From Halanaerobiaceae bacterium ANBcel28 (GTDB taxonomy: Bacteria > Bacillota > Halanaerobiia > Halanaerobiales > DTU029), in the NCBI GenBank assembly GCA_037623315.1, contig JBBJJH010000001.1:77019-141018 (forward strand): DNA of 64,000 nt, written 5' to 3'. Of the stretch, positions 746 through 54,971 are shown in pieces. The first letter of the stretch is position 1; each line of letters opens with the position of its first letter. Below the pieces are notes generated by a model. That model saw nothing but the letters and a program-made list of their open reading frames with translations, ran no database searches and had not been told where the DNA came from. Made by a program: the position numbers and the translations under genes.

Positions 746-2101
746 TTAATAAAACGGATATTGGTCTGGAGATTCCCCTTTGCTTCCAATAATTTCAGGT
801 TCAAAAATATCTGTTTTTTTATCAAGAATTTTTTCAACAGATATATTTATCTTCCAATTATCTCCGAAATCGAATAAGTAGAGAAAATTTTTACCTACAT
901 ATAAATTCAATTCACCTATTTTTATTTCTTCGACATATGGTCCTCTATTACACATTTTAGAATTATAGAAAATATTTGAACCATATACTCCATCCATGTA
1001 GAAAGAATAGAGATGGTCATCGTCAAAATCATAGGCTTTTTGTATAATATTATGTAAATCCAACAAAGTGTGATTATCTGCAATTTTTATCTCTCGCCAC
1101 ACTCTATTATTGTATGAGCATTTAAAAATATAAATACCTTCCTTAAATTTTTCTTTCAGACTTGAAAGGGTCTTTGTTAGTACACCAGAAGGGAAAATAG
1201 GCCTAAAAGCATGATAGAAGATATCGACTTCTATTTTGTTTTTTATCTTTGTTTTATCATTTAATTTTGACTTGATTTTTGCTTTGAAATTTCTCTTTAG
1301 TTCAGCATGTTGCTGATCTGTTAAAATTTTGCTTTCTTTTACTTTGTCAAAAATAAAGTCTGTAAGTATCCCATTATAGTTGTTTTCTCGTTCAAAACTG
1401 TTTTGATATGGACGATTCCAATTTGTAATTTTCCTTTTATTATAAAGAACATCTGCTAATAATATCCCCAATTTATTTGCTATTATTTTACCAGCTTCAT
1501 ATTCTTGTGTACTTAATGATTCACATTCAATGACATCCCAAAAACCAAAATAATAGAAGTTTCTTAGAAAGGCATTCCTCTCAGAAAAATACACTTGATA
1601 ATATCCTCCATGTATTTTTACTTCTTCTCCTGCTTTTAAGGCACATAAAATCTCTAAAACACTATCAACAGTAGCCAGAGATAAGTTATCATGATTATGA
1701 ATCCCTATACTCTCCCAATCAATATCAACCCAAAATGTTTCCAATAAAAAGATATACTTCTCATAAAAATTCAATTTTTTATAAGTATTATAGCTATCAG
1801 AAACCATCAATTTAGGTTGACGATTTCTACTATCTACTAAACACAACTGACTTTTTGTACTTAAATGAAATAGCAAGTTCAAAAAGGGATAGGAAAACTG
1901 ATTACTTTTCTCAGTAACACCCTCTTCTTTATTAGTCATTAATGCATTCATCGCATAAAGATCTTTTTGTTTCAAATTCTTTTTTTTCAAAGTAAGAATC
2001 AAATCATTAGCACTTATATACTCCATAAATAGGTCAAAATCCTCGACTATTGATGGACAAAAACTTTCTTCTTTTGAAAGTACTTTTTTGTCTCTAGACA
2101 T
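746..2101 (-). CDS. pRiA4b ORF-3-like domain protein (C-terminal), unknown N-terminal domain
   Basis: C-terminal segment IYIFKCSYNNRVWREIKIADNHTLLDLHNIIQKAYDFDDDHLYSFYMDG matches the plasmid pRiA4b ORF-3 family signature (WRrI.v..TL.dLH.viq.amgW.d.HLheF). Confidence 0.55.
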   Translation of the reverse strand: MSRDKKVLSKEESFCPSIVEDFDLFMEYISANDLILTLKKKNLKQKDLYAMNALMTNKEEGVTEKSNQFSYPFLNLLFHLSTKSQLCLVDSRNRQPKLMVSDSYNTYKKLNFYEKYIFLLETFWVDIDWESIGIHNHDNLSLATVDSVLEILCALKAGEEVKIHGGYYQVYFSERNAFLRNFYYFGFWDVIECESLSTQEYEAGKIIANKLGILLADVLYNKRKITNWNRPYQNSFERENNYNGILTDFIFDKVKESKILTDQQHAELKRNFKAKIKSKLNDKTKIKNKIEVDIFYHAFRPIFPSGVLTKTLSSLKEKFKEGIYIFKCSYNNRVWREIKIADNHTLLDLHNIIQKAYDFDDDHLYSFYMDGVYGSNIFYNSKMCNRGPYVEEIKIGELNLYVGKNFLYLFDFGDNWKINISVEKILDKKTDIFEPEIIGSKGESPDQYPFY

Positions 2102-2176
2102 TTAATTTACCCCTTTATTTACTTTTATTAATGTATATCAACTGCAATTAATCTCTACTTAAAAAGGTGGATTAAC

Positions 2177-3745
2177 TTACATTCCCCAGATTACAATCTT
2201 CTTATCATTATATTCCTTCTCTTTTCTGAAAATTTTCTCCTCCCAGCCCTTATCTTCACTTTTATCAAAAATAAGCAAATGACCAGTATTTGTTCCCGTT
2301 CTATCCATATATTCTGCAGTTTGTTCAAGACCAAGGGCTATTGTTTTTTCTAGACTCTTATGTAAGATTTTAAGTTCAAGTACATATTTACTACTATCCT
2401 TCCACTCAATAAGTATATCAGTCCGCATTTTCCCAAGACCATATTCTCTATAAATTCTACCACCACCATTAACTACCCTCTGTAAAAAGGCCTGCAATAA
2501 AAGCTGGGGACCAGCTTCTTTATAAGCAAAGCGTTCAATCCAGGTTTCTGAGTTTTCACGAAAAAATTCCTGGAAATTTTCAATAAGTTTACTGACATTT
2601 AAGCTGCCATCTTCATTTACATACCACTCTGGTTCATATAAAGAACCTAAACTCATTTGACTTATATAATTCAATTCTCTAGGAATAACTTCTTTATAGA
2701 TTGGGTTTGAAATTTCTATTTTTCCGTTAATGTTGCTAACTAAACCTAAATCTATAAGATATTGTAAATCATCCTGTGGAATTTCTTTAATTGCCAGTCC
2801 TTCTAAAATCGGCTCGATTATATTTTTAACTCTTTCTTCTTTTAATTTATCCACCAGTTGATCAAGATGAGTGACTCTACTTAGAATTAATTTATCTTTA
2901 GCTTGATTAATTAAGTCTACAGTTATGGGATTGTTTCTATCTTTTCCTTCTGGCATTTCGAAACATGCTTCATAAGCTAAAGCATTTACTAGCCAGGGTT
3001 GCCCCTTTGTCAAATTATAAGCCAGTTTTATTGCATCTTCACTAAATTCCTGTCCAGTTGATTCTGTATGTTGTAAATATAAGAATTTTACATCATTTTC
3101 TCTAAAATTTCCCAATCTTATTGATTTTGCTTTGACATTAAAACAACTGCCACCTGTAATAATTTCATTATGCTCACTGGAATGAATTCTATAGTCTCTC
3201 ACATCTCTTACACCACATAATATTATGCTTTGAGGGAATGCATTAGGTCTGGTGTCATACCTACTTCTTAACTGACGTAGAACAGAAATAAGAGAATCTC
3301 CTACTAATGAATCTATTTCATCAATAAGAAGAACTGTTGGTAAATCATTTTCTTGAGTCCATTTTGTTAAAATATTTGCTAATGCAGTGTGAGAACTTTT
3401 AAGAATATTTTTAACATGCTTGCTCATTTTATTTTCATTTAAATATATTGTTTCCCTATTTTCAAGCTCACTTAAAATAGATTCCATCGCTATTTCTACA
3501 TTCTCTCTAGCCGCTTGAGCACTTTCAACATTTATATACAAGCACTTATATTTTCCACTTTTATTCAAAAGATCCATAAGGGTTAAAAGACTGCTTGTTT
3601 TACCACTCTGTCTGGGTGCATGTAGTACAAAATATTTTTTCTGATCAATTAAAGAAAATATCTCTTCTTTATTTATTCTCGCAGTTATTGGTACATGATA
3701 ATGATCTTTAGCCACTACCGGCCCAGCTGTATTGAAAAACTTCAC
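2177..3745 (-). CDS. AAA-like domain ATPase (FNTAGP-type), unknown function
   Basis: N-terminus MKFFNTAGPVVAKDHYHVPITARINKEE...VLHAPRQSGKTSSLL is the hallmark of the AAA-like domain family (FNTAGPV..HY...R + Walker A PRQSGKT). Confidence 0.6.
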   Translation of the reverse strand: MKFFNTAGPVVAKDHYHVPITARINKEEIFSLIDQKKYFVLHAPRQSGKTSSLLTLMDLLNKSGKYKCLYINVESAQAARENVEIAMESILSELENRETIYLNENKMSKHVKNILKSSHTALANILTKWTQENDLPTVLLIDEIDSLVGDSLISVLRQLRSRYDTRPNAFPQSIILCGVRDVRDYRIHSSEHNEIITGGSCFNVKAKSIRLGNFRENDVKFLYLQHTESTGQEFSEDAIKLAYNLTKGQPWLVNALAYEACFEMPEGKDRNNPITVDLINQAKDKLILSRVTHLDQLVDKLKEERVKNIIEPILEGLAIKEIPQDDLQYLIDLGLVSNINGKIEISNPIYKEVIPRELNYISQMSLGSLYEPEWYVNEDGSLNVSKLIENFQEFFRENSETWIERFAYKEAGPQLLLQAFLQRVVNGGGRIYREYGLGKMRTDILIEWKDSSKYVLELKILHKSLEKTIALGLEQTAEYMDRTGTNTGHLLIFDKSEDKGWEEKIFRKEKEYNDKKIVIWGM

Positions 3746-4447: not shown

Positions 4448-5749
4448 TTAGATCAATTCCCTCTTTATATCACTGATAAGCTCATCAATAAGCATTTCCT
4501 GATATCCTGCCATAGTATTTTTCTTAAGATAAGCAGCAAGATCTTTCAGTTTTTCATTCTTCAAATTCGCCAGTTTACTCAAACTTTTCGCACTTATTCT
4601 TTCTTTAGAAAGGGTTTTTTCGTAATCAGGCAGACTATATCTCCACAGTACTAATTTATCCCTATACCTACTTTTCAACCTATCTGCTATGCCTAAACCT
4701 TCTGGATCAAAATCTCCTGAGTAATAAATAATCGTATCTTCTTTAACCAGCATATCCAGTAGCAAAAGTGATGCTAGCTTTAACTGACCACTAGTACAGA
4801 CTAGGGACAAGTTATCATTACCCAAACTATCTATGATACTTGAAAAAACAGCAGGGTTTTCAAGTACAAAAACTTTGTCAAGAGGGCTTACTATTCTCTC
4901 AATAGAGCTTAGATTTTTAAGAGAGAGCAGCAGCGGTTCTTTCCTTTTACTAAAACCCTTCCATCCCTGATGAATCTCTCCATTACTTTCTGCCTCCAGT
5001 CCATAACAGAGGGTGTAATTGGCTACTTCATTGATTAAGATACCAGCATTATAGAATAGCTCTGCCCTTTCTTCAGCATTATTGGGTTTCTCACTGTTAA
5101 ATTGATATACTAAAGCATATTGAAGTAGGATATCAAGGTCTGTACCATGGTCAAAGGCATGTGGATTTTTTGTAATCTGAGAAGCAAAAACTGCCAGACG
5201 TGTCTTTTTTCCCCCATGGATAGGCAAGTTGTTTAAGGCACGAGCAGTCTGATAAATATCTATCTTAAGTTTTTCTGAATCAATATTATATCTTTTTAAG
5301 AGAAGACTATAGGCATTGTTTTTATTAGAGTAAAGATCCATAAGCCACTTAGCTGCTGGTCTGCCTTCCACCTGATTTATAATTTTTCCAAAAAATTTTT
5401 TTCTCTCAGACAAGTAAATATATCGTTCTTGCTTATATGAAATGATCTCTTCTTCTAAAAAATATTCTTTCAATATATCTTCTAACAATATACCGTCAAA
5501 CCTTGTTCCCTGTAGGGCTTCCTCAAATTTTTCAAGTCTTATTGTGGCCTGTTTCTGCCTGCTATAATCCTTTCTAAAATAGCCTGTTAAAGCCTCTTTT
5601 TCCTGCTGGCTTAGATTGCTAAGAACTATTTTACCACCAATTTTTCCTAGTGATTTATATTTCTTTTTCATCTTCAAAAAAACCCTGGAAAAGCCAGGAT
5701 TTTTTTTAAAGTATTCAACACAGTCTTCTAGCAACTTATTATTATTCAT
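4448..5749 (-). CDS. jetD: Wadjet JetD (DUF2399/TIGR02679, Toprim-containing)
   Basis: Toprim-like motif IIYYSGDFDPEGLGIADRL near C-terminus; last gene of the jetABCD arrangement. Start taken at ATG 5749 (AGAGG SD 9 nt upstream); track start 5758 is TTG. Confidence 0.75.
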   Translation of the reverse strand: MNNNKLLEDCVEYFKKNPGFSRVFLKMKKKYKSLGKIGGKIVLSNLSQQEKEALTGYFRKDYSRQKQATIRLEKFEEALQGTRFDGILLEDILKEYFLEEEIISYKQERYIYLSERKKFFGKIINQVEGRPAAKWLMDLYSNKNNAYSLLLKRYNIDSEKLKIDIYQTARALNNLPIHGGKKTRLAVFASQITKNPHAFDHGTDLDILLQYALVYQFNSEKPNNAEERAELFYNAGILINEVANYTLCYGLEAESNGEIHQGWKGFSKRKEPLLLSLKNLSSIERIVSPLDKVFVLENPAVFSSIIDSLGNDNLSLVCTSGQLKLASLLLLDMLVKEDTIIYYSGDFDPEGLGIADRLKSRYRDKLVLWRYSLPDYEKTLSKERISAKSLSKLANLKNEKLKDLAAYLKKNTMAGYQEMLIDELISDIKRELI

Positions 5750-5804
5750 AACCATCAACCTCTGATATATTATATATAAGAAAAGTTAGGATCAATTTTG
5801 CAGT

Positions 5805-6209
5805 TTAGCCAATAGAAGCGACTGCTAAATCTAATGTATTAGCAGCTTTTATTAATCTTTTGTCTAAAGTTACTAAAGTAGAATTCTTTCTTCTGCAAGT
5901 AACTAAGTACATCGCATCATAAGCAGGATGATCAATTTTACATGATAGCGATATAGCTTCTTCATAAACATCTTCAGCTTTGATGAATTGATCTACTATT
6001 TCTGTCATTTGCCTTGTTTTAGTAAGCAAATCATCTAAAGGATAGTTTTGAATAGAATGATATTTCCACATTACATTAGATGCTTCATAAATATATAAAG
6101 AAGGAGCTATAATCCAATCAGCATCTTTTAGAATATCAATTAGTATTTTTTGTTTGGGTCTTCCCATGACTATTTCAACGGCAGCACTAACATCAATAGT
6201 AAAAATCAT
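5805..6209 (-). CDS. vapC: PIN-domain toxin VapC
   Basis: 134 aa; MIFTIDVSAAVEIV...EASNV...DAMYLV...TLDKRL: PIN acidic residues at canonical positions; 4-bp ATGA overlap with upstream antitoxin. Confidence 0.8.
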   Translation of the reverse strand: MIFTIDVSAAVEIVMGRPKQKILIDILKDADWIIAPSLYIYEASNVMWKYHSIQNYPLDDLLTKTRQMTEIVDQFIKAEDVYEEAISLSCKIDHPAYDAMYLVTCRRKNSTLVTLDKRLIKAANTLDLAVASIG

Positions 6210-6454
6210 CGTTCTCTATCCTCTCTGATAAGAGGAACAGGATCAAGAATATCTTGGGCTTTTTTATTACCAGTTTCATCTATAATACTGTTAAAGAAAA
6301 TTTTTCTTCGTTCTTTATTATGTTTTTCAATTTCTAAGGCTTTTTCAAGTAAAACAATAGTTTCTTGAGTTATACTTCTTCTTTCAGTTTCAGCAAGTTG
6401 AACAATTTTTTGATAGATATGTTCGGGTAAGTCTCTAACTTGTAAAGAAGGCAT
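6206..6454 (-). CDS. vapB: ribbon-helix-helix antitoxin VapB
   Basis: MPSLQVRDLPEHIYQKIVQLAETERRSITQETIVLLEKAL = RHH (CopG/Arc) motif; AAAGGTGG SD 7 nt upstream of this ATG (track start 6472 lies in the SD). Confidence 0.75.
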   Translation of the reverse strand: MPSLQVRDLPEHIYQKIVQLAETERRSITQETIVLLEKALEIEKHNKERRKIFFNSIIDETGNKKAQDILDPVPLIREDRER

Positions 6455-6536
6455 ATTGATTCCACCTTTCATATTTGTCTAGATATATTATAACATATTG
6501 CAAAGCTTCATGCAATGTGCATGAATAACAACACAG

Positions 6537-9500
6537 TTAGCTTACAAGTGTTCTCACATTACCATCCCATTGATAACGAATAACTGATACAACATCAGCA
6601 TTATTAGGCCTTACTAATTCACAGATAGAAAGTGATGGTACTGTATCATAATCACCCCATAATACCTGAGAGTTTATCACAAAACTAAGATCTAACTCCT
6701 CTAATAGTCTAAACATATCCCTGATATTATTGCTGTCAACACCAGCAAAAGCCTCATCAAGTGATATAATTCTCGGGCAATCCTTACGACCATTTTCATA
6801 GCGGGCATATACAGCAGAGAACAAAGGAACATACATGGCCATTGCCTTTTCTCCCCCACTAAATCTATTAAAGGCATTGTTTGTAAGTTCTCTTTTGGGT
6901 TCATTTGTTTTCTGATAATAGAGACGAAATTCAAACCATTTGCGGTAATCAAGGATATCTTTCATGATAGCATGGAAGGTCTGGTTTGATCCACTATCTT
7001 CCATCACCTTTCTGACTTCACTTATCTTTGATCTAAAGTGTGCAGATAGTTTTTTAAAATCCTCTTCTTTCAGAAGACTGGCTTCTGATTTCAATATCTC
7101 TACTAATTCCCGAGTATCCATCTGCTCCTCAGTTTCTGCTACTCTACTTTTCCAGCGCAGGCTAAATGACAAGCCACTTGAGGTGTCCATACTTTCCATT
7201 AACTTATTCATTTTCTTAACCCACTGTTCTGCATGATAGATCCTGGCTCTGATTTTTTTGCTAATAGTGTTTGCCAGAATATCTTCAAACAATTGACGAT
7301 CACTTTCTTTTAGTAATTGTTCATTTTCAACAATAGATTCTTCTATAAAATCAACAAGTGTATAAAAATTAACATCTTTACCTTTAATACGAGCAGTAAA
7401 TTCTAACCTTTTAAAGTCTTCTATCATTTGATTAATATCTAAATCATCTATTTGCTTTATTTCTTCTTGCCAATCATCTTTAGTAAATAGATGTTCAGCC
7501 ATTAAATTATACTCAGTCAGATATTGTCTGTTCTGATAATATTTATCTGTCAAACTAGTAATGTAATCTATTTTTGATCTTTTCTCATCATCTGATCTTA
7601 AGCTCTTATATACTCCCCTGGCAGATGCAAACAAATCCTCTTCGTCTTCTCGACTATAGACATATGCTAAATTAATTTCCTTTTCAAAGGACAATTTAGA
7701 GATAGTATCAATCTCTTTTGCTCTTAGAATCCTCTTTTCTAAGCCAGCTAAATTATTAGCTATCCTCTGATATTTTTCCTGAGAAACAGCAGATCTTTTT
7801 GACTCTTTTTGCAGCTCTTCAGGTATTTCTTTTAAGACATTTATACATTGGTCAATTTCCCTTTCAATTTCTTGATAATCTGTTTTCTCCAGGATCTCTC
7901 GATAGCTGGCTATTATCTCGCTATTTTCTTTCAACTCCCGCTCAAGCCTATTGAGATCATAGAAGAGGTTGTCTATATCCTGCAGAACATCTTCAATCTG
8001 CTCCTGGCCATTACTTAGCTGATACCTTTTATTGACAAGCAAGGTATGTTTGCTACTTAACTCACTTAAGTGATCCTTATAATCTTCAGCTGCCTCAAGT
8101 GCTTCCTGATAGGCATTCAGATTAAGTGGAAGATAAATTTTTGCCGTAATTTCCTGTACCTGTTCAGATACTTCTTTTAGCTTTTTATATATTTTTTCAG
8201 CTTCTTCTTCCTTGCGTTTGGTTTCCTTTTGATGGTTTTCTAAGCTCAAACTAGCATTTTGAAGCATTTTTAGTCCAGTTTCCAGGTCATCTTTTCCAGG
8301 AAATCTTCTAAACTCTTCCTGAATAAGAGCTAATAACTCCTGTAGTTTTTTAATTTTAATTATCTCTTCCTCTATGTGACTATTTAGATCTCTAATTTCT
8401 GCTTCTAATCCCTCAATAACTTGCTGGCGATATTCTTCGCGGGCTTGAACACCAATATACTTAGCCTCAAAAGAAGCACTGGCCTTTCCCCTTAAAATAC
8501 CAATGCTAAATTCACCCTTTTCATTAAGAAATGTTAGTGAATCCCCCTTATTTAAGACAATACTCTTTAGCGCCTGATCAATAATAGCAGGGGTAATCTG
8601 ACTATCTTCTACTTTTTCTGCCTTTAAGAACAATGAAAGTTCATGGGTCATATATTGTGGATTGGAAAATATATATTTATCAGCCATACCTCTATCCATA
8701 TTAAGGACATCTTCTTCGCGGTACTCCTCGGGAACAATTAAGGCATCCAGTAGTCCCATGTCTATTAAGGCCTCTTCTAAAACTCCCCTGGCTTCTTGAG
8801 AAAGATCATCGCGAAAATCAACTGCTTTATAGAAGGGTAGGAAAGGAATTCCTTCCTCAGCCAGTCTTTCACGATTGCGAAGAACCTTTTCTTCTCTAGG
8901 GGGTTCTGGATCCTTTTTCTTTTTCCATTCCTCCAATTCTTTTTCCTTCTCTTGAAGCTCTTCTTGATAGCTATCTATAGTTGCTTCTATACTGGAATTC
9001 TCTCTATTAATATTACTTTCCAGCAAAGATGTTTTCTTTCTAAGCTCTACAAGAATATCATCAAAACTAGACCCTTCACCATAGCTCCTTACTATTCTTG
9101 AAAGATTTTGCATTTCCTCTTCAGATAATTTCAGCAGTAAATTATTTTTTTCCCAGCGATAGACCTTTTCTAAATATTCATCACGGGTCTCATCAAATAG
9201 GGATTGTACTCGTTCAAGCTCTCTACTGGCATCATCTTTTTCTTTTTTTGCCTGATCAAGAATCTGTAAAGCACGATCATATTCTACTTTTTGCTTTTTT
9301 TCCTCTGCTAGCTTTTTTAGCCCCTCTGCTATCCTCTCTCTATATCTAAGCAACTCATTTTTTAAATAAGTAAAGTCATATTCCCGTGGAGGCTTTTGAG
9401 CTATTTCTTCACTGGCAAAAGAATGTTCATCAAACTTAAACTCTTCTGCAAATTCAGCCATCTCTTTTAGGATAGTATTAATCTCTTTATCTAAATACTG

Positions 9501-10640
9501 ATATTCTTCTTCAAGATTTTTGTATTGACTTTGTAATTTCTTTTCTCTTTCTTGCTTTTCCTCCAGGTTTGTCTTCTTAGCCTTGTGCCGTTTTTGCAAT
9601 TCCTTTTCTTTTTCTTCCCTTTTATCAATTTCAATTTTGGCCTGATAGCTATCATGTTTTTCCAATTTCTGTTTTTTGTGTTCATATAATGTCTGCCTAG
9701 AATTAAGTTCATCAATTTTCTCTTCAGCTTCTTTATAAGCTGAATGAAATTCTTCCATAGCATTTTGCTGTTTTTCCAATTCTTCCTTGCTATCTTTTAA
9801 CTCCTTTTGAGCATTCAGATAAGTTTTTGCTTTTTCTAATAAAAGAAATCTATTATAGCGGTCATATTCACTTTTCAATTTATCTGCAGCTGCTTTACTT
9901 TCTTTTAAAGCCTCTAGCTGGGTTTTAATATTATCCATATTCTCAATGGCTTCTGACATTGGCCGCAAATCTTCATCAGATAGTGGCTGGATGGCATTAT
10001 TCATAATGTCATATATAACAGTTGGCTTAAAATCCTTGGATAGTTTAGGTGTGCGCAATTGCACAAGTAGTTTAACCAATTCATCATATTCCTCTATATT
10101 TTCAAAACCAAAGAGAAGCTTATTGACCATTTCCATATAATTTCCCTGACTATCGTAAAATTCACCACCATTGGCAACTCGATTTCTCAACTCAATCTTA
10201 CTTAAAGGTACTTTGTCCCCCATTTCCTTATAAAGAAAGAAATCTTTTCCGATTCTTCTGCCATCAGTAAGAGAAAACCCCCAGGAATTTAAAGGTTTTC
10301 CCCGTCTAGCTTGAAATCCCATGCCAATAGTTAGATATCTACCTGAATCCTTTTTCGCAAATTCCATATATAGATAGCCAGTACGCTCATCCTGTCCATT
10401 TTCATCTTCTCCAAGTAGGTAATTGTCCATCTTTCGAGCTCTAGAGCCAAAAGGATCCAATCTTTCTGGACTCCTATTACCATCAAGCAAAAGTGGTATA
10501 AAACTCTGCATGGTTACAGACTTACCTGATCCGTTTGACCCTCTTAGTAATAATCTACCATTTGAAAAATGAAACTCTTCTTCATCATAATACCAAAAAT
10601 TAAGCAAGCCCACTTTGTTTATTATCCATTTATCCTGCAT
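6537..10640 (-). CDS. jetC: Wadjet JetC, SMC-like ATPase (TIGR02680)
   Basis: 1367 aa; Walker A RGSNGSGKSVTMQ at N-terminus; long coiled coil; C-terminal RFSGGEKAMAMYVPLF (signature-like) and ISLDEAFAGVD Walker B; 1-bp overlap with jetB. Confidence 0.85.
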   Translation of the reverse strand: MQDKWIINKVGLLNFWYYDEEEFHFSNGRLLLRGSNGSGKSVTMQSFIPLLLDGNRSPERLDPFGSRARKMDNYLLGEDENGQDERTGYLYMEFAKKDSGRYLTIGMGFQARRGKPLNSWGFSLTDGRRIGKDFFLYKEMGDKVPLSKIELRNRVANGGEFYDSQGNYMEMVNKLLFGFENIEEYDELVKLLVQLRTPKLSKDFKPTVIYDIMNNAIQPLSDEDLRPMSEAIENMDNIKTQLEALKESKAAADKLKSEYDRYNRFLLLEKAKTYLNAQKELKDSKEELEKQQNAMEEFHSAYKEAEEKIDELNSRQTLYEHKKQKLEKHDSYQAKIEIDKREEKEKELQKRHKAKKTNLEEKQEREKKLQSQYKNLEEEYQYLDKEINTILKEMAEFAEEFKFDEHSFASEEIAQKPPREYDFTYLKNELLRYRERIAEGLKKLAEEKKQKVEYDRALQILDQAKKEKDDASRELERVQSLFDETRDEYLEKVYRWEKNNLLLKLSEEEMQNLSRIVRSYGEGSSFDDILVELRKKTSLLESNINRENSSIEATIDSYQEELQEKEKELEEWKKKKDPEPPREEKVLRNRERLAEEGIPFLPFYKAVDFRDDLSQEARGVLEEALIDMGLLDALIVPEEYREEDVLNMDRGMADKYIFSNPQYMTHELSLFLKAEKVEDSQITPAIIDQALKSIVLNKGDSLTFLNEKGEFSIGILRGKASASFEAKYIGVQAREEYRQQVIEGLEAEIRDLNSHIEEEIIKIKKLQELLALIQEEFRRFPGKDDLETGLKMLQNASLSLENHQKETKRKEEEAEKIYKKLKEVSEQVQEITAKIYLPLNLNAYQEALEAAEDYKDHLSELSSKHTLLVNKRYQLSNGQEQIEDVLQDIDNLFYDLNRLERELKENSEIIASYREILEKTDYQEIEREIDQCINVLKEIPEELQKESKRSAVSQEKYQRIANNLAGLEKRILRAKEIDTISKLSFEKEINLAYVYSREDEEDLFASARGVYKSLRSDDEKRSKIDYITSLTDKYYQNRQYLTEYNLMAEHLFTKDDWQEEIKQIDDLDINQMIEDFKRLEFTARIKGKDVNFYTLVDFIEESIVENEQLLKESDRQLFEDILANTISKKIRARIYHAEQWVKKMNKLMESMDTSSGLSFSLRWKSRVAETEEQMDTRELVEILKSEASLLKEEDFKKLSAHFRSKISEVRKVMEDSGSNQTFHAIMKDILDYRKWFEFRLYYQKTNEPKRELTNNAFNRFSGGEKAMAMYVPLFSAVYARYENGRKDCPRIISLDEAFAGVDSNNIRDMFRLLEELDLSFVINSQVLWGDYDTVPSLSICELVRPNNADVVSVIRYQWDGNVRTLVS

Positions 10641-11794
10641 TATTCTCCACCTTCTATCTTAAAATCATCTGGATATTTACCTATAATCTTACCCACTAAA
10701 GGAAGTATCCTTATTTCTTTCCTACTATTATCTGCTTCTAACATACTAAAACTTTTCATATATACTATAAGCTCTTCTACTAGCTTTTCTATACTCATCT
10801 CTCTATAGCCTTTGCTCCAGCCTGAATGATAGCGCTGATGACAAAGAACTACTATATTCGCAAATTTGACCTCTGAGATAGTTATGGTATCATCTTCTTT
10901 TTTGCTAAGATCCCCTTCTTCCAGCATTTCTCTGATAATAGCATTCATCTGTAATACAATATCTGATATACTCTTATTATCAGGAAAAACATCTTTAAAA
11001 TATTTGCTTTCATCAAGAGAAATAAAGGCACCATTTTTATGAACATGGAGTTCACTTTCTAGCAGATCCTCTACATCTTTTTTTAGCATATTGCGATAGT
11101 TTTTTATATAAAGGTAATCAGCATCATCAACACCCTCATTATAGACTACAGGAGACATAAAAAGACGGCGGTATACCCTGTTGCGCCTGACCCTTCCCCT
11201 ATCTCGATCCAGATCCAACCATTCGCCTTTTTCGATATCTTTGTATGAGGAATAATTGCTTATATTTCCGGCAAAATTCAGCATAAAGTATTTAGAAAGA
11301 CCAGTGTTTTCATATAGTACCTCTTCTTCAGCTGAACTAATAAAATTAGAGTCACTACCATCATTTGTTTTTATAAGGAAAATATCTTCTGCAAAGCGAA
11401 GCACTTTTACAAGATGTCTGCGATGATTGTATAGTGTCCAATCAAGCTCTATATCTCTATCTTGTGGAAAAATAGCTTCAATAAAATCTGTCAGCTGTGA
11501 GAGTATAAACTGTTCTTCTGCTCCTTTATCCTCAAGAAAGGTCAACAACAAGGTTAAAAAGGCATATTCTAATTTGTCAGTGAATTCTTCAATACCCATC
11601 CAGGATTCTGGTTTACCAGGTAACTTCTCTAATTTTATAAGATAGGGATTGATTATAAGTCGATATCCCAGCCTGTCCTGTAAAAAAGTTTTTAATTTAG
11701 GATAGGCATCTTTTATTCGATAGTAAAGTTCTTTGTCTTCTTCCTTACTAATCCAGTATCTTTCCAGTAATATCTCCAGTTCTTTCATAAGCAA
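10640..11794 (-). CDS. jetB: Wadjet JetB (DUF2398/TIGR02678, MksE-like)
   Basis: 384 aa acidic protein sandwiched between kleisin-like jetA and SMC-like jetC in the canonical order. Confidence 0.7.
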   Translation of the reverse strand: MLMKELEILLERYWISKEEDKELYYRIKDAYPKLKTFLQDRLGYRLIINPYLIKLEKLPGKPESWMGIEEFTDKLEYAFLTLLLTFLEDKGAEEQFILSQLTDFIEAIFPQDRDIELDWTLYNHRRHLVKVLRFAEDIFLIKTNDGSDSNFISSAEEEVLYENTGLSKYFMLNFAGNISNYSSYKDIEKGEWLDLDRDRGRVRRNRVYRRLFMSPVVYNEGVDDADYLYIKNYRNMLKKDVEDLLESELHVHKNGAFISLDESKYFKDVFPDNKSISDIVLQMNAIIREMLEEGDLSKKEDDTITISEVKFANIVVLCHQRYHSGWSKGYREMSIEKLVEELIVYMKSFSMLEADNSRKEIRILPLVGKIIGKYPDDFKIEGGE

Positions 11795-11804
11795 TCCTTT
11801 CTCT

Positions 11805-13325
11805 TTAAACTACACTTTGTTCAATTTCTACTTCCTGTTGAATATTTTCGACCAAAAACATAATCTTATAAGCAGGCATGGTTAGATTCCCATCTTCACA
11901 TCTAAGGATACAATCTTGCTCATTTACTGGCTTAATTAATTTGAATTCTCGTCCATCTTCTGTCTTTGCTAAATTGTTATGAGATGCGGTAGCTTTCCCT
12001 ATCCATTTTAATAATGTTATTCGGACATGTGATGGAATGAGGGGTAATTCTGAAAAATCAATTATATTCTCCTGAATATAGCTATCAATTACCTCCTGCT
12101 CCTGCTTCCTTTCTCGAATATATATTTTAAGTAATTTTTTCTTTTTTTTGGACTTGTCCTCTATAGGAATTCTTTTTCTCTTTTCCCGATAACGTCTAAC
12201 TCGTGGTTTGATTTTTAATTCCACTGCTGCCTCATCATAGATACCACTATTAATACTTTCGGTTTCTCTATTGATATTTGCTTTGATGTGACGGCTTCGA
12301 AAAATACCAAAACTAAGAGATGATAATTTGTTTGCTTCGTCCATATCCTGACAGTCTAAAAACAACTCACAAAGTTTCCGATACTCCTCTTTCCGATTGG
12401 CAGCACTATTACGATTTTCAATAATCTGGGAAGCAAAGCGTGTAATTTTCCTGATAATTTCGTTAGTAATTTCGAATAATTTTACTGCCTCACTCTCAGC
12501 CTCTCCACTCCCTAGAAACCAATCGCGAAAGTTTTTCCATCTGCCGGCTATATTTTCTTCTAAATCTTGATCTGTGACTTCATTTTCCAGTCTAGGTATT
12601 GACTTCTCAAATTGCCATGCCTTCTTCAATACCTTTTCCACCTGAGAGTCACTAAGTTTTTTAATTGTTTCTTCTATAATATAAAGATTTTTCTGTAGCT
12701 CTTTAACAAACTCTCTTAAGTAATCTATGACAGCATCTTTATAAGCAATAAATTCCCGAGTTCTCATCATTTCTTCTGCTTTTATACTATAAAAGCTACG
12801 AATATAATCCTGATAGTTTTGATTCAAGCGTTTAAAGTCTGTATTTAAATCCCTCCACCAGAGACCTACAACTTTTAGATCCTCTTCTGCCATAGAGGAG
12901 AATTTCTGAACCTCATCTTTAATCCGCTCAAGCAAGGTGGGTTCCAGAGAAGCCCCTTCCACAAAAATATTCTCTAACTTAATAGTCATTCGCTCTATTT
13001 CCACAGAGTATTCGGAGAGTTGATATCTAAATTGCTTATTCCTGAATTCTTCTATAGTTGCCGATTTAGAGGTATCCTGCATAGCCACTAAATTACCCCA
13101 ATCCAACAAGACGTCAAGATCCTGCTTACACTGTTCCATAGTATAATCTTTAAAAATCTCATGTTTTTTTAATTCCTGAAAGACCTCTTCTTTATACATC
13201 CAGTATTTGATTTTTTCATATTGCTCATAGAAATACCTTAGTATAGGACGATAACGCCATGAGTTATCTGTATTAAGATATTTCACTTCTACAAGCGGCT
13301 TTGTCAGCTTGGAATTAATATTCAT
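11805..13325 (-). CDS. jetA: Wadjet JetA (DUF2397/TIGR02677, MksF-like kleisin)
   Basis: 506 aa, first gene of the jetABCD arrangement. Confidence 0.7.
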   Translation of the reverse strand: MNINSKLTKPLVEVKYLNTDNSWRYRPILRYFYEQYEKIKYWMYKEEVFQELKKHEIFKDYTMEQCKQDLDVLLDWGNLVAMQDTSKSATIEEFRNKQFRYQLSEYSVEIERMTIKLENIFVEGASLEPTLLERIKDEVQKFSSMAEEDLKVVGLWWRDLNTDFKRLNQNYQDYIRSFYSIKAEEMMRTREFIAYKDAVIDYLREFVKELQKNLYIIEETIKKLSDSQVEKVLKKAWQFEKSIPRLENEVTDQDLEENIAGRWKNFRDWFLGSGEAESEAVKLFEITNEIIRKITRFASQIIENRNSAANRKEEYRKLCELFLDCQDMDEANKLSSLSFGIFRSRHIKANINRETESINSGIYDEAAVELKIKPRVRRYREKRKRIPIEDKSKKKKKLLKIYIRERKQEQEVIDSYIQENIIDFSELPLIPSHVRITLLKWIGKATASHNNLAKTEDGREFKLIKPVNEQDCILRCEDGNLTMPAYKIMFLVENIQQEVEIEQSVV

Positions 13326-13379
13326 AATCTACTCCTTATTCATGAATTATATGTATAATTTTGTTAGTATTATATACTT

Positions 13380-13409
13380 TTCAATAATAATTATAAGTAA
13401 TAATAGTAT
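13380..13409 (-). promoter_or_regulatory. consensus sigma-A promoter of jetA (TTGACA-18-TATAAT)
   Basis: Minus strand: TTGACA (13409..13404), 18-bp spacer, TATAAT (13385..13380); about 55 nt upstream of the jetA ATG. Confidence 0.7.
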
Positions 13410-13532
13410 CTTGTGTCAAGGAAGTATAGAAGAAGCTCAGTGCAAAACAGCCATATTCGCTGTACTTATCAAGTTTAAAATTCTTTTACTTAAGTATTTA
13501 CATTTCATTTCAATTCTTACAAAAGGTTTAGA

Positions 13533-14090
13533 CTACCAGTTACTAATAATTCCCAGCTGTATAAATGCAACTGAAAGTAAGCTCAATAACCTATATTTAG
13601 AATTTCTTAAGTAATAATGCTCCTGCCTATTAAATATATCCATATTAGCTCTTGCAAAATTATCGACATCAAAGTCTATTTTTTCTCTTTCTAGATATCT
13701 TTTTAATTCATTTACAGCTTCCTTAATTGTCCCATCATTTATATTATTTATTTGCATATGATTATTTGCAACAAGAAATGCCTTTGTTTCTGTACCAAGT
13801 GAAAAAGCAAGATCACAGGAATTAATATAGAAGTTAGATATGCAATAGCTTTCTATTGATGGATAGCTTAATAATAAAACACCACCCCGCATATCATCGT
13901 TATCATATGGATCTCTTAATTTTTGAATTAATTCTTTAATAAATTCAATATCTTCATTTGATTCTGGATCTCTATCAAATAAATAATATATCGCTGTATT
14001 ATCAACAGGGAAACTGTATTTAGTTATTAATTCCTCATATAAATTATCTAAGTAACTATTTTGGTCTTTAATATAAGAAATTATTAAGTT
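13533..14090 (-). pseudogene. Toprim-like C-terminal half of an OLD-family nuclease, in a frame shifted relative to the upstream ATPase ORF; no in-frame ATG/GTG/TTG before residue 67
   Basis: I translated the minus strand by hand. The frame is open from 14090 (just after an in-frame TAA at 14093..14091) down to the stop at 13533, 186 codons. The only canonical start is the ATG at 13892. The 66 start-less codons contain IYYLFDRDPES (a DxD Toprim-like motif), and SYPSIESY lies downstream. Confidence 0.45.
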
Positions 14091-15238
14091 TTATCATAGT
14101 TTGGAAGCCCCTCAAAAATACCGCTCAAATACATTTTTTCTAAATTCTGAGCTAGTCTAGGTTGTTCATCAGAAAATCTCTTAACCCAACTACCTTCTGA
14201 TCCATTAAAATTAACAGAATAAACCTGATCAGGTCTTAGAATTGAAGTGCTTAATAAATTAGTAGAATGGGAGACAAAGAAAATTTGAGAAGAGATTGAT
14301 GATTTCATAAAGTGTTTAATCAATAATTCTTCTAGTTCATTATGAAATCCACTTGAAAATTCATCTACTAAAAGCATACCTTTCTTATTTATAATATTTA
14401 AAAAAGAAGGTAATATATTTAGCAGAGTTTGATTTCCTAATGATTCTTCCTCATAGGGAATAACTGTAGCTATATCTTTTCTTCTAAAAAAAACAGTTTT
14501 ATTATTATCTATAGTTCTTAAATTTACCTTTCCATCAGAAAATTCCTTAGAATATTCTATTACCTGGTCAAACTTATGCTTCTCAAAAAAACTATTAATA
14601 CTTGCAGTACCCTGGTTTTTTAAAAACTCATCTAATAATAATTCTTCTTTACCATAATGAATTACATCACTATCAAAAGCATTAATATATATCGAATTCT
14701 GTAAATATTCAAACCAAGTCTTTAATATTTCATTACCTGCAAATCTTGTATTGAAATATAATGTTCTTAAAAATAATGTTTTATTATCCAGATCATCCTC
14801 ATCGTAAATAGTTTCTTTTTCGTCAACTATATAAGACCGTGCATTAAGGCCCATTCTATCTAGTAATAACTTATCTTCTATATGCAATTTCTCAAAAATA
14901 ATATTCTTTAGTGGATTGTTTATCACTGAATATCTAATTTCTTTATCCTTTATCTTAAAATAATAATCAATAGAAAATTCTTCTTCATCAGAGAATAAAC
15001 ATTTATAAATTCTTGATTTAGTATTTTTTTCTCTAAATAGCATATCTAATAAAAATTTTATTGCAATAAGAATATTAGATTTTCCAGAAGCATTTGCACC
15101 AACAAACATTATACCTTTTAGTATACCATTATCAGCAACATTACTATCTTCTAAAAATCTATAATTAGTTCGAGAAAAATCAATTTCAGTCTTCTCTTTA
15201 AAAGATTTAAAATTTTTGATTTCAACTTTTGATAACAT
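14084..15238 (-). CDS. OLD-family / AAA_21-type ABC ATPase (N-terminal half of an Old/GajA-like nuclease)
   Basis: MLSKVEIKNFKSFKEKTEIDF...FVGANASGKSNILIAIKFL (Walker A), LLVDEFSSGFH (Walker B); ends ...LSGIFEGLPNYDKT*, where FEG resembles the first Toprim glutamate motif. Confidence 0.7.
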   Translation of the reverse strand: MLSKVEIKNFKSFKEKTEIDFSRTNYRFLEDSNVADNGILKGIMFVGANASGKSNILIAIKFLLDMLFREKNTKSRIYKCLFSDEEEFSIDYYFKIKDKEIRYSVINNPLKNIIFEKLHIEDKLLLDRMGLNARSYIVDEKETIYDEDDLDNKTLFLRTLYFNTRFAGNEILKTWFEYLQNSIYINAFDSDVIHYGKEELLLDEFLKNQGTASINSFFEKHKFDQVIEYSKEFSDGKVNLRTIDNNKTVFFRRKDIATVIPYEEESLGNQTLLNILPSFLNIINKKGMLLVDEFSSGFHNELEELLIKHFMKSSISSQIFFVSHSTNLLSTSILRPDQVYSVNFNGSEGSWVKRFSDEQPRLAQNLEKMYLSGIFEGLPNYDKT

Positions 15239-15365
15239 TGCTTCTCACCCCTCTTTTTTTCAATTATATCATACATTTCTTATTATGTGTAATTTTTTTA
15301 CGATCAATACATGTTATAATGTATTTTTTTTACTACTCATTAGGTGCTAGTCGTATTTTAATATA

Positions 15366-15649: not shown

Positions 15650-15706
15650 CCTTTTCTCTCTCTTCCATTATTCTATTGGAATTAATTTAAATCTAATATA
15701 CACTTT

Positions 15707-15736
15707 TTCTATAATAATTATAAGTAATAATAAGAT
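15707..15736 (-). promoter_or_regulatory. consensus sigma-A promoter of ywbE, near-identical copy of the jetA promoter module
   Basis: Minus strand: TTGACA (15736..15731), 18-bp spacer, TATAAT (15712..15707). Confidence 0.7.
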
Positions 15737-15838
15737 ATCGTGTCAAGGAAAGACAGAAAGCCCCAGTAAGTATTATTCCTTATTACTGGGGAACTTATTT
15801 TAAATAGACCACACATATACTTTAGTAATAATAAATTT

Positions 15839-26122: not shown

Positions 26123-29100
26123 TTAAGTAGAGATATTCTGCAAGTTTTGCTTATTAGCAATCAAGTTTAGATTTTCCCCTATAGTATTTAATTCTTTAAT
26201 TACTTCTTTTACCCTTTGACCGTCTTTTTCTGATTTTTTATCAAGGTAAATTTTCTTGATTTCATTCCATCTTTTTTCTTGTTCTGCTGACATTCTACTG
26301 CTAATTTCATAGAATTTTAGCAAACTAGCTTCTGCATGTGTTGCTAATGTCTGAGCATCATTGATATAGCTATTTTCTACTAATGCATCTATTTCCCCAT
26401 CATTCATAATAGAAACTACTTTTTCTACGATTTTATTCATATTTCTATAAGATCCTTGTAACTTAAATGGAGGTTCTGTTCTATATTCATCATTCTGAGA
26501 TGAAGAATATATATACTCCATATTTACCCGTAATATTTCATCCCTTATTTTAAGACAACTTCGTAAAACACTTAAAGCTTCTTCTATCTCTTCCTCAGTA
26601 TAAGTTCCACTTAAGTTAATCTCATCTCTATTTCCTGTGTTTACAATTTGAATTAGTTTATAGATATCCTCTGGCTCCTTCATATAAATAGCATTTAGAT
26701 GCTTATTTGAAGTAATTGAATTCTCTATATAACTTAACTTAAATGCTTCTTCATTTTCCCTCAACATATCTCCTAAATTATAAACATCTGCTCTGTTAGC
26801 TAGCATATCAGGAATCTTGAATTTATCTCCACTCTCAGTGTAAGGGTTACCGGCCATCACTACACAGACCTTTTTTCCTCTAAACTGATAGCTTTTACTA
26901 AGTCCCTTGTAAACACCTTCTATCTTTCTCTGCCCATCACATAAAGAGATAAACTTCTGTAAGAATTCTGGATTTGAATGCTGGATGTCATCTAAATAAA
27001 TCATCACATTATTCCCTATTTCAAAAGCTAAGTTTAGCTTTTTAATTTCCTCTCTAGCACTAGCATTCTCGGCCTCTGTAGGATCAAGAGAGCAAACTCC
27101 ATGACCAATAGTGGGGCAATTTATTTTAACTAGGAGCATATTCAATCTATTAGCAACATACTCTACAAGGGTTGTTTTCCCATAGCCTGGTGGAGAAATC
27201 ATCAAGAGCATTCCCATATTGTCCGTTCTCTTACTCTTTCCTGCTGTACCTATCTGTTTGGCTAAATTATCACCAATTAAGGGCAAATATACTTTATCAA
27301 TCAACTTACTACGAACAAATGATGTTAAAACTTTTGGTTTTAAATCTTCAAAATTAAGTTCCTTTTTAATAGTTCTAATCTTTTCAAACTTAAGTTTCTG
27401 AAACTCTTTATATAGAGGTATTATCTCATTTGTGAAATTATCCATTTTATCAAAATAGTCTACTAGATTTATTTTGTATTTACTATTATCAATTACTTTA
27501 TGGTTTCCAAACAACTTATTTATACTTATTTCTGATTTTTTATTAACAATTCTTCTTTTCGAATAATCCCCGAAGATCAAGATAGCCAATACTTCGTATA
27601 TATAATCACTAGAAGATATTTCTTTCTCATATAAATAAGATTGTAACCATTCATATATCAATATATATTTTCCCTCTATATCTTCATCTAATTTTTCTAT
27701 AGATTCTTTAAAATCCTTCTTCCCATTATTTGAAATCAGAAAGTTATTAAATTCTTCATATAATTTAGCTGCCTCTGCACTTAAAACAAAACTTTCATTC
27801 TGACTAATTTCTTCAGCCAGATATTTTGCTACTTTTTCACATGAACTACATTCTATCCACTTATTTTTTTCCAAAAAAGATCTTATTTCCTGACTTAATG
27901 CCGGGATAAACCCTAGAAGCAAATCCCTTTTGGAATGTTTAGAGATCAGATTTGCAGCCTTCAATCTTTTAGCCAGTTTTTCTTTTACTTCTTTTTCCAG
28001 GCCAATTTCCCAAAAAATATTAGCTATAGCTCTGATTTTAGGATTATATGAAGCCAGTTCTAATTCAAGGTAAGTGTCTACTATAGCACTTAGTATCTTT
28101 TGGCCATCATGGTCATGAACTCCTTTTGTATAGTATTCATTGGAGTGATTTTGAATATATTCTTTTACGATTTTCTCTAATTTCTGCTGACCCTCTTTAT
28201 ACAAGTCTTTTAAAGACTTATCTTCCTGATATCTTTTAAAAATATTGTATGCTAGAAATTCTCCACGATAGACATTGTCATTTTCAGATATAAGTTCTTG
28301 TTCCCAAACAGCTTGATAGTTAATAAAGTCTCCTCCATCTACCTTTTCCCAAAAATCTGTACCTGAAATATGAAAATAGAATCCATCTTCCTTTTTCAAT
28401 AAACTAAGTTCAGCCTTTTGATTGTTAACAAGAAATTGATTATTGCCAAATTTAATTGTATTTTCATCCAAAAATAGTTCATTTTTATCTTTAAGCTGTT
28501 TTACAGAAGATTCTTTTAGAGATTTTAACTTGTTTTCGATATCATCGGCTTTAGTACTATCCCCAAGTTCAATTAACTGTTCTATAATATCTCTTATTTT
28601 TTCTACCATAGGACTAGTAGAGAATAACTCAGTAATTGCACTTACTTCTTCCAAAGATTGTATTCTATTTTCTAAATTCTTCAATATTCTATCTGCTGCA
28701 TTACCTAAAGAAGCAATTTTTCTATTTTTCTTTTCAATTAACTGCTGTTTTTTCCCTTCAAATGTTGATATGATATCTTCCCTTTTTTCCGTTAACATTA
28801 CCAGGAAGTCATCAAAATCAGAAAACTCACTTTCTAATTCATCTATCTGAATTATTATTTTTGACATATATTCTTCAGTTTTTGCCACAGTATTAGATAA
28901 ATCTAAATGGTTAGAGACAGCATGAGTTAAAAGATTTAGTTTAGAATAAAATTCTGCTTCTTTTTCTTTAGAATTCAAATTATCTATTATATTTTTTAAT
29001 TTAGCCTTACTCTGATTTAAGTTTGAAAAAAGCACAGAAATCTTATCAATAATCTCAGCCGTTTTTGTTGAATCTTCGATTTTTAAATTATTCACTATAT

Positions 29101-31021: not shown

Positions 31022-32987
31022 TTATTGATGTTATTGGTTCATTTTCTATCCCCAATTTTTGAGCTTTATCCAATATTGATCTTCTAAGTGGATTTGGGCT
31101 ACCATTAGAATCATTCATGTATTTCATTATAGCACCTGAAATTGTCAGATCCCTAATTGTTTTGGAATCAAGATTCATATTACCCATTAGAGTTTTAAGT
31201 TGTTTTTTAAAATCTTCTAAACCCCCATTAAAAAATGTATCTTTTACATCTCCTATAACAGCAGAGTTGTTTACTAATCTATCAACTTGCTTTCCTCTAG
31301 TGATTGAATTTACAAGTTTATCAAAGAAGATTGAGTCTCCACCTACAATATCAACATTAGCATTTGATAGACCGTCTTTAATTATTTGCGCTTGTGCTTT
31401 TGCTATCTCTGCTTCAATATTTATTCTAGCTAATTCTACTTCTTTATCTTTATTTAGTTTTAGTTTGAACTCTTCATGTTCTTTTCCTACAGAATCTAAG
31501 TTTTTCATAGCTTCTGCTTTTTTATTAATTCCTTCAGCTTCTGCTTCTGCTTGCATGGTTTCAACCTTAGCTCTAGAAGCACCTTCTGCTTCAATGGCCT
31601 CAGCTTTTGCTTGCATAACTCTTGCTTCAGAAATTCCTTGAACTGCTGCATCCTCGATATTAGCTTCTGCCATTATTTTTATGGATTCTGCTTTTTGACG
31701 TGAAGTTTTTAATTCAGTCTCAGCAAGTATAAGTTCTTTTTCTGCTAACTCTTGAGCACTTCTCCTATCTGCTTCTGCCAGTTTTACTTTATCAATAGAT
31801 CTAGCTTCTGCTTCTCCTTCTGCTTTAGTAATACTGACTGTCTTTTCTCTGTTAGCTGCAGCAATATCTTTTGTATCTTTTACTTTTTCTTCTTCTTCAG
31901 CTACTGATTTTTCTACTATTACTCTCTCGCGTATTACTTCTTGCATACCTTTTTTCTCTTTTTCTATTTCTTTTTCTTTTTCAATTTCAGCAAGGGATAC
32001 TACTCTTTCTCTTTCTGTTACTTCTAGTTCTGTTTGCTTTCTTGCTCTTTCTGCTTCTACACCTTCGGTTCCTTCTTTAGCTATTCTTGCAATTAATATC
32101 TGTCTATCTTTATTTTCCTCAGCTATTGAAACTTCTTCATCTGTTTTTATTCTTACTCTTTCTGATTTTAGTCGCTCTTCCTCATCTACTATTATTATTT
32201 GTGAATTTTCCCTTGATTTTAGATTAGCTATTTCTCTCTTTTGTTTTTCTTCTGCTTCAGCTTGTTGTCGCTCAAGTTCCAGGATAGCTTCTTTAGCACT
32301 TACATCCTGTTTTACTATAGTTTTTTCTTTATTTCTTCTAACTTCATTTGCTCTAATGGCTTGTTCTGCAGTTAATTCGATAATTTTCTTTATACCTTCT
32401 GAATCAAGAACATTGTCTTCATCTAGGTTCTCCACTTTTGTTTGTTCTAAATAGTCAATAGCAGCATCATCCAAAACATAACCATTAAGATCAGTTCCTA
32501 TAACCTGTAAAATCTCTTCTTTAAAAGTATCTCTTTCAGTATATAGTTGAGTAAATTCGAATTTCTTACCTACTGTTTTTAGGGCTTCAGAAAATTTAGC
32601 ATCAAAGAAGCGCATTAAAGTATCAGTATCTGAAGCTTTTTTTGTTCCTAAAGACTTAGCTACTCTTAGTACGTCCTTTTCTGTATGATTTACCCTAACA
32701 AAAAAGGCTACCTTAATATCAGCTCTTAAATTATCTTTACAAATCAAACCATCTTTACCGCTTCTCTCGATTTCTACTCTTTTTATAGAGACATCCATCT
32801 TCTCCCAGTGATGCAAGATAGGTACAATCCAGGTTCCCGTAAAGGATACTTTTGAACCTCCTATTCCGTTTTTTACAATAGCAGTTCCTTGTTCTACCTT
32901 CTTGTAGAATAAAAGCAATAACAATGGAAAGGCTACAAAAAGTAGTAAAACAACCCCTATTACAACATAGATTATCATTTCTAACAT
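31014..32987 (-). CDS. flotillin family SPFH/band-7 protein
   Basis: N-terminal TM, SPFH core (...KDNLRADIKVAFFVRV...), then a long EA-rich coiled coil; AAGGGGGA SD. Confidence 0.8.
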   Translation of the reverse strand: MLEMIIYVVIGVVLLLFVAFPLLLLLFYKKVEQGTAIVKNGIGGSKVSFTGTWIVPILHHWEKMDVSIKRVEIERSGKDGLICKDNLRADIKVAFFVRVNHTEKDVLRVAKSLGTKKASDTDTLMRFFDAKFSEALKTVGKKFEFTQLYTERDTFKEEILQVIGTDLNGYVLDDAAIDYLEQTKVENLDEDNVLDSEGIKKIIELTAEQAIRANEVRRNKEKTIVKQDVSAKEAILELERQQAEAEEKQKREIANLKSRENSQIIIVDEEERLKSERVRIKTDEEVSIAEENKDRQILIARIAKEGTEGVEAERARKQTELEVTERERVVSLAEIEKEKEIEKEKKGMQEVIRERVIVEKSVAEEEEKVKDTKDIAAANREKTVSITKAEGEAEARSIDKVKLAEADRRSAQELAEKELILAETELKTSRQKAESIKIMAEANIEDAAVQGISEARVMQAKAEAIEAEGASRAKVETMQAEAEAEGINKKAEAMKNLDSVGKEHEEFKLKLNKDKEVELARINIEAEIAKAQAQIIKDGLSNANVDIVGGDSIFFDKLVNSITRGKQVDRLVNNSAVIGDVKDTFFNGGLEDFKKQLKTLMGNMNLDSKTIRDLTISGAIMKYMNDSNGSPNPLRRSILDKAQKLGIENEPITSIIE

Positions 32988-54888: not shown

Positions 54889-54971
54889 TTTCTTTCACCT
54901 TCTAAAAACAAAATTTAAGCTAAGTACATTTTTAAATAGCATAGCTTTATTTATATTAAAATAATTACAAA

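Follow-up and report, generated by a model that had tools for sequence, protein, structure and literature searches.

What kind of gene lies at positions 13533-15238, on the minus strand, of the 64,000-nucleotide (nt) stretch of Halanaerobiaceae bacterium ANBcel28 that we analysed (contig JBBJJH010000001.1; hereafter the window)? A complete ABC ATPase gene (gene A) is followed here by a long open frame without a start codon at its head, and a preliminary description, made from the letters alone, took the two for the halves of a single-chain OLD-type ATPase-Toprim nuclease split by a frameshift. We consider it very probable that the locus instead holds a cassette of AbiL/PDC-M12 type, made of two genes, the second of which (gene B) has been broken by an internal deletion of 194 nt, that is, an ordinary decayed defence gene.

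Two genes in the relatives, 194 nucleotides missing here

Gene A (14084-15238, minus strand) is intact in this genome. It starts with ATG, encodes 384 amino acids (aa) ending in ...SGIFEGLPNYDKT in the list of open reading frames (ORFs), and carries the Walker A (GANASGKS), Walker B (LLVDEF) and H-loop (SHS) motifs of an ABC-type ATPase, the first two of which the preliminary description had recognised; Pfam AAA_21 scores 2.5e-20 on it and AAA_15 matches too. An ungapped comparison with the A protein of L001, an intact locus, gives 85% identity across the full 384 residues, and the protein has every invariant column of a 36-sequence alignment in which it is itself included. Among the PADLOC profiles AbiLi gives the best score (1.4e-45, covering profile positions 49-288 of 326), and PDC-M12A matches at 1.2e-36 over positions 1-368 of 369; since this match runs to the end of the profile, the C-terminus of the protein is complete. 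The tail itself, ...MYLSG(I/V)F(E/G)G(L/I)P..., is conserved right to the stop, with F375, G377, L378 and P379 invariant. E376, the glutamate of the FEG that had been assigned to a Toprim domain, is not among the invariant columns and is replaced by G in loci L065 and L072, and therefore cannot be the Toprim glutamate. The AriA models of PADLOC match gene A at 2.5e-17, the match of the GajA hidden Markov model is confined to residues 24-71, the similarity to OLD/GajA models being that of the P-loop region only, and sequence comparison with the PDB gave only marginal matches for the ATPase. An 'AAA family ATPase' of Natronospora cellulosivora (P0121) is identical to gene A.

Downstream of it, the frame between 14090 and 13533 has 185 open codons and then a stop (13533-13535), is immediately preceded by TGA TAA (14096-14091) and contains IYYLFDRDPES. 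Its first ATG, GTG or TTG is indeed, as had been stated, the ATG at 13892 (residue 67), and the frame as written cannot be translated in full. It is not open by chance, because real proteins match it: the best, P0001 (251 aa), does so with E = 7e-80 and 72% identity, ungapped, over 180 residues (71-250), and a protein search with the frame gave 189 matches, nearly all of 245-257 aa and without a Pfam domain, which mostly align to 95-97% of the frame and have extra sequence at the N-terminus. The PADLOC profile PDC-M12B matches at 2e-5 over positions 77-228 of 251, and the frame therefore resembles a protein without its first 55-75 residues.

In the relatives, A and B are separate, overlapping genes. 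At the loci of P0001, P0002, P0004, P0024 and P0006, an AAA_21 ATPase gene of 385-388 aa is directly followed by a gene of 238-251 aa (about 385 aa for A and about 250 aa for B being the typical orthologue sizes), with an overlap of 11-17 nt in four of these five loci; the position of the B start inside the last codons of A suggests translational coupling. Intact B proteins start MMKLNKNKSIGRVLFIVEGGRTEFSLL... and the best 120 homologues of gene A all have 371-412 aa. With the profile of the B alignment, an exhaustive search of 1.84 billion representatives yielded 484 proteins at E ≤ 0.001; the best 150 of these have at most 279 aa. A scan of one genome per species, whose detection is biased to remnants keeping the FDRDP/LLLSYP patterns, gave 67 loci; as we read the tblastn comparison of these, about 49 have a full-length A directly upstream of a full-length B, and in several more the pair is simply interrupted by the end of the contig. 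A fused A-B gene did not appear among the orthologous loci, the best 120 A homologues, the best 150 B representatives or the 67 loci. The preliminary description had itself named orthologues that consistently have two separate genes, with a proper start on the second, as evidence against a split gene, and this is the arrangement that the intact orthologues have. Their A-B pairs lie in unrelated neighbourhoods, sometimes beside restriction-modification or other defence genes, and are almost absent from phage and plasmid collections: tblastn with intact B found no match in either, and only one viral contig carries the B family.

The lesion becomes visible once the window is aligned with these orthologues at the DNA level. 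A start for gene B, overlooked in the preliminary description, lies within the end of gene A: the ATG at 14097-14095 and 13 further bases (MIKLN...) form a 16-nt stub (14082-14097, minus strand), which shares 14 nt with the end of gene A, uses the third frame and, read through, would give only the nine-codon MIKLNNFLY* with its stop at 14070-14068. The same B start, ATGATGAAA(C/A)T.AATAA, is present in the orthologous loci L001, L002, L003, L005 and L006. Identity with these five stays high to the end of A and across the 16 nt that open B (ATGATAAAACTTAATA); then follows a gap of 194 columns in the window sequence alone, which picks up again at ATTTCTTATATT, corresponding to codon 71 (ISYI). 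By blastn against L001, too, the offsets are exactly 194 nt apart. The junction falls at 14082/14081 (within 1 nt), with at most 1 nt of microhomology, and what is missing relative to L001 is B codons ~6-70, about 64 codons, rather than a mere shift of frame. The preliminary description had suspected a homopolymer indel at the AAAA run of 14092-14089; this run is present, and the lesion is the internal deletion in gene B. As 194 is not divisible by three, the ATG of gene B and the remnant are in different frames. No second copy of the deleted segment was found by searching the rest of the 64-kb window.

What the deletion took and what it left can be read from the family alignment. The lost segment contains the nearly invariant I10-G-R-V-L-F-I-V-E18-G19, plus E23; with it went helix 1, the strands after it and, ahead of these, the first strand, which bears the conserved VEG(G)xTE glutamate motif. 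The 3' remnant (13533-14081, minus strand), 182 codons plus a stop, corresponds to residues 71-250 of the 251-aa orthologue, as the protein search and PADLOC both indicate; it retains the DxD motif (FDRDPES) and the SYPSIES motif, and it keeps all family-invariant residues of this part (D106-R107, P109, S111, N112, Y143, P144, E147 and others) as well as the nearly invariant D108, without a usable start codon. Scans of the remnant gave no meaningful Pfam or NCBIfam match. From its first in-frame ATG a 119-aa ORF (13533-13892, minus strand) is publicly annotated as a hypothetical protein, and is 100% identical to P0003, a 119-aa 'hypothetical protein' of Natronospora cellulosivora; this ORF lacks both the glutamate and the DxD motifs, and no Shine-Dalgarno-like sequence was seen on inspection of the sequence ahead of 13892. 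Judged by these comparisons, gene B in this genome is most likely a deletion pseudogene, made by the internal, out-of-frame loss of 194 nt.

The B protein among the ATPase-Toprim systems

The preliminary description had placed the locus with the OLD-type ATPase-Toprim proteins. An ABC ATPase with a probably Toprim-like partner, within the wider OLD/PARIS/AbiL group, stands; the class 1 OLD assignment does not. On intact B orthologues PADLOC reports PDC-M12B (3e-8 for P0004, profile positions 9-232 of 251) and AbiLii (1e-4 for P0001 and P0004), and intact B has no Pfam match, RloB (PF13707) not appearing even at E ≤ 10. A search of the PDB with the B-family profile found nothing. An AlphaFold2 model of P0001 built from 59 sequences is of high confidence (predicted local distance difference test, pLDDT, 92.6; predicted template modelling score, pTM, 0.91), and in it strand 12-17 is followed at once by E18, while strand 100-106 has D106-x-D108 at its end. 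The Toprim fold, following Aravind et al. 1998, reportedly has an alpha/beta core with a conserved glutamate after strand 1 and a DxD after strand 3, and the order of the two motifs in the predicted model is consistent with this. Foldseek with the model gave no significant match in the PDB, and one significant full-length match among the viral models of BFVD, a 'RloB-like protein' (E 2.3e-4, probability 1.0).

Distant relatives of gene A on plasmids (23-27% identity) adjoin genuine PDC-M12B proteins (1e-114 in Raoultella p23_F, 6e-89 on an Acinetobacter plasmid), and the partner of a distant A in Enterococcus faecium is a Pfam RloB / PADLOC AbiLii protein that weakly touches OLD-like_TOPRIM. 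The B-family profile matches these three partners at E 0.0016-0.009, with the VEG..TE, (Y/F)DxD and SYP.(I/V)E motifs aligned; for the genuine RloB protein among the three, hhalign gave E 0.009 with the DxD motifs aligned, a marginal similarity. B is thus probably a divergent RloB/AbiLii/PDC-M12B-like protein, consistent with a Toprim fold without proving it, and the probable Toprim glutamate is that of the VEG motif within the deleted segment. Because the PDC-M12B scores of B are weak next to those of the true plasmid members, we regard the B proteins of Clostridia and Halanaerobiales, as far as profile scores can tell, as a distant branch of the PDC-M12B family.

Among named systems PDC-M12 is the closest in layout: the gene order is the same, A then B, B has the same size (~250 aa) and is likewise described without a Pfam domain, and A matches PDC-M12A across the whole profile. 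In the window the two profile-matched genes are adjacent, the B scores of the remnant and of intact orthologues being weak (2e-5 to 3e-8) with colinear coverage; here, however, B is a deletion pseudogene. PDC-M12 is a predicted candidate system of PADLOC only, and a literature search found no paper naming it. AbiL of Lactococcus (AbiLi and AbiLii) and RloA/RloB are likewise two genes, an ABC ATPase and a small RloB-type Toprim-like partner, and gene A has the AAA_21 ATPase of the AbiLi type; the differences are that B lacks a match to Pfam RloB and that the AbiLi profile is covered in part. In a working PDC-M12 or AbiL system both genes are intact and translatable, whereas here B is deleted out of frame. 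The literature counts AbiL among the ABC-ATPase and TOPRIM systems (PMC11464382, PMC13064643) and groups it with PARIS, Old, Gabija and MADS, all of them pairing a TOPRIM nuclease with an ABC ATPase of the AAA15/21 kind (PMC11464382); phage protection of the AbiL type is known only from the Lactococcus system, and its mechanism is still not established (PMC13064643).

The other members of the group fit less well. PARIS (AriA and AriB, the latter with DUF4435; class 4 OLD-like) likewise has its ATPase and its Toprim-like effector on separate adjacent genes; its AriB has ~300 aa as against ~250 aa for B, and neither Pfam nor PADLOC gave an AriB/DUF4435 match for the remnant or for intact B orthologues. 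The class 1 OLD proteins (P2 Old; Thermus scotoductus OLD, 6P74) have both domains on one chain of ~520-590 aa, whereas here there are two genes, and of the core glutamates and DxD the remnant in the window keeps FDRDP, the VEG/TE glutamates being deleted. Gabija (GajA and GajB; class 2 OLD) includes a GajB/UvrD-like helicase; none lies here, as the preliminary description had correctly observed, the neighbours being jetA-D, a DUF2196 gene and BacA.

Age and recurrence of the lesion, and rival explanations

The deletion looks fairly recent, because 182 AT-rich codons remain without a stop and every invariant residue of the retained part has been kept. The identities of B and A to the orthologues (B/A, in per cent) are 72/85 for L001, 66/78 for L002, 59/67 for L003 and 58/69 for L006; the B/A ratio is alike across the loci compared, and the remnant shows no obvious extra divergence relative to A. 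A relative-rate test on the remnant is equivocal, with 14 vs 9 or 16 vs 4 unique B changes depending on the outgroup.

Comparable lesions occur in relatives. In L065, from a Hungatella metagenome-assembled genome (MAG), A and 11 B codons are kept, and then 169 nt are missing (codons 12-67; locus positions 2930-3060). L072 lacks 130 nt of B (codons 13-55; 2900-3060) relative to L035, to which it is 91-96% identical; its A is frameshifted and its B is also truncated at the 3' end. Both deletions are independent, out of frame and remove the VLFIVEGG motif, with the reading frame of A still upstream. Other kinds of damage are found as well: L055, L058, L075 and L076 have B remnants that start around residues 54-140 with no ATPase gene upstream, L013 and L054 have frameshifts in B, and L050 and L071 have a damaged A. 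A deletion hotspot was considered and rejected: the three deletions end differently (codons 6-70, 12-67 and 13-55) and share 1-3 nt of microhomology at most, and their detection is biased.

Three further observations concern members of the family. In L013 (~3162-3171), the closest relative of P0001 (92% identical), the frameshift lies near codon 56, and the Iocasia B (L002, 7979-8001) has a 1-nt gap in its first codons, its annotated start being shifted to MFIVEGG; each is either a lesion or an assembly error. In Defluviitalea phaphyphila (L011, 5329-5604), a 91-aa mosaic ORF lies ~1.6 kb downstream of an intact A-B pair and is pieced together from ~residues 334-366 of A and two parts of B, the short LLRRIFC and residues ~96-141; the peptide FQFLIGRLET recurs in minus-strand ORFs near it, suggesting an array of DNA repeats.

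Could the genome carry an intact B from which 194 nt were lost in assembly? The sequence comes from a draft contig 262,599 nt long, and the small frameshifts of MAG relatives such as L013 and L054 are possibly errors. However, a clean loss of this size with no flanking repeat above ~1 nt is atypical of a homopolymer or collapse error, the missing segment turns up nowhere else in the window, and the L065 and L072 assemblies carry comparable and yet different deletions, from which it follows that such lesions occur naturally; we hold an artefact to be quite unlikely. Almost no credence can be given to a single-chain, P2 Old-like class 1 OLD gene with a 1-nt frameshift, or a programmed -1 frameshift, between its halves. 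Its attractions are a combined length of ~570 aa, which resembles that of class 1 OLD proteins, a second frame, -1 to that of A, which opens shortly before A stops, and the existence of fused AriAB forms in PARIS (PMC11464382). All relatives, however, have two genes; A matches its profile to the last position, with a tail conserved to the stop; a joined product would still miss ~64 residues with the conserved glutamate; and the FEG glutamate that would have served the Toprim half is G in some homologues. The sole possible -1 slip site is AAA ACT before the stop, which is no X XXY YYZ heptamer, in agreement with the preliminary description, which had found no convincing slippery sequence either. 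Programmed frameshifting was rejected, since the B segment is absent from the DNA itself.

There is also the idea that the remnant or the orphan ATPase is still used, be it as the 119-aa ORF, as a +1 slippage product from the MIKLN stub or as the ATPase alone, and serves as a regulator, decoy or antitoxin-like protein. We think this very unlikely: the 119-aa ORF has neither catalytic motif and no visible ribosome-binding site, no position is conserved for the first in-frame start among the remnants of the window, L055, L065 and L072, none of the three deletions preserves the frame, and L072 looks like plain decay, even though the remnant has no stop codons and all its invariant residues, A is fully intact, and 5' deletions of B with A retained recur in L065 and L072. 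Decay of a two-gene cassette by deletion remains the reading that we prefer.

Neighbourhood and consequences of the deletion

The cassette sits in a defence-rich stretch. Immediately downstream follows a type II Wadjet operon, with jetA at 11805-13325, jetB at 10640-11794, jetC at 6537-10640 and jetD at 4448-5758 (JetA2, JetB2, JetC2 and JetD2), and upstream lie a DUF2196 gene and bacA/uppP. Immediately 5' of gene A, a consensus scan picked out a putative promoter, TACACA-17-TATAAT with an upstream TG (15291-15263, minus strand), and inspection of the sequence a putative Shine-Dalgarno sequence, GAGGGGTGAG (15253-15244, minus strand), the whole region spanning 15244-15291; both are pattern matches whose function is presumed. 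A 54-nt direct repeat (85% identical) occurs at 13378-13431, upstream of jetA, and at 15705-15758, upstream of the DUF2196 gene, and between the two copies lie gene A, the B remnant and the DUF2196 gene; each holds a perfect TTGACA-18-TATAAT promoter on the minus strand, of which none would be expected by chance.

Further genes of possible defence interest, all on the minus strand, were seen in the window. Between jetC and jetD, a gene for a FitA-like ribbon-helix-helix antitoxin (6206-6472) overlaps by 4 nt with one for a PIN-domain toxin (5805-6209). Just past jetD (746-3745), an AAA_22/AAA_35 ATPase (522 aa, 2177-3745; a weak PDC-S01 match) stands beside a PRiA4_ORF3-domain protein (451 aa, 746-2101), and both may be further defence-island content. 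At 26123-32987, a 657-aa protein without a Pfam or PADLOC match is overlapped at its end by a 1632-aa protein that has an AAA domain, DUF7902 and DUF3686 ('ATPase involved in DNA repair'), and the pair may be a two-gene module. At 54127-55742, a 256-aa fusion of a Phd/YefM antitoxin with a Uma2 restriction-endonuclease-like part (PADLOC PDC-S03, 4.5e-59) adjoins an AviRa-type methyltransferase.

How intact copies might work is suggested by PARIS, in which an AriA hexamer holds AriB until a phage protein triggers its release and the freed AriB cuts tRNA (PMC11464382). By this analogy we infer that ATPase A would act as sensor and keeper, and that infection would release or activate B, in this view a metal-dependent nuclease effector; for AbiL and PDC-M12 no mechanism of this kind is established (PMC13064643). 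Here the out-of-frame loss leaves the 16-nt stub and an untranslatable 182-codon remnant, and the cassette is most likely a disarmed defence module. This copy is most likely inactive, since the glutamate-bearing N-terminal third of B is gone and the gene's own start cannot translate what remains.

For annotation, this means that where the public record has a 119-aa hypothetical protein there is really an ATPase gene and a deletion pseudogene of its effector, and that the locus should be counted neither as an active defence system nor as an OLD nuclease. Wherever an AAA_21 ATPase and a downstream frame look like a 'frameshifted fusion', the very common architecture of two genes with overlapping starts should be tested first. 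The small census presented here is a first view of how often the effector gene decays in the B family. It is conceivable, and in our judgement unlikely, that the B proteins of Clostridia and Halanaerobiales, which form 484 clusters at 50% identity and have no Pfam model, are a distinct clade of Toprim-like effectors whose catalytic N-terminal segment is repeatedly and selectively deleted while the ATPase is kept, as in the window, L065 and L072. If this were true, either the toxicity of the effector would drive recurrent disarming of these cassettes, or the ATPase and its truncated partner would be kept for a role other than that of a nuclease.
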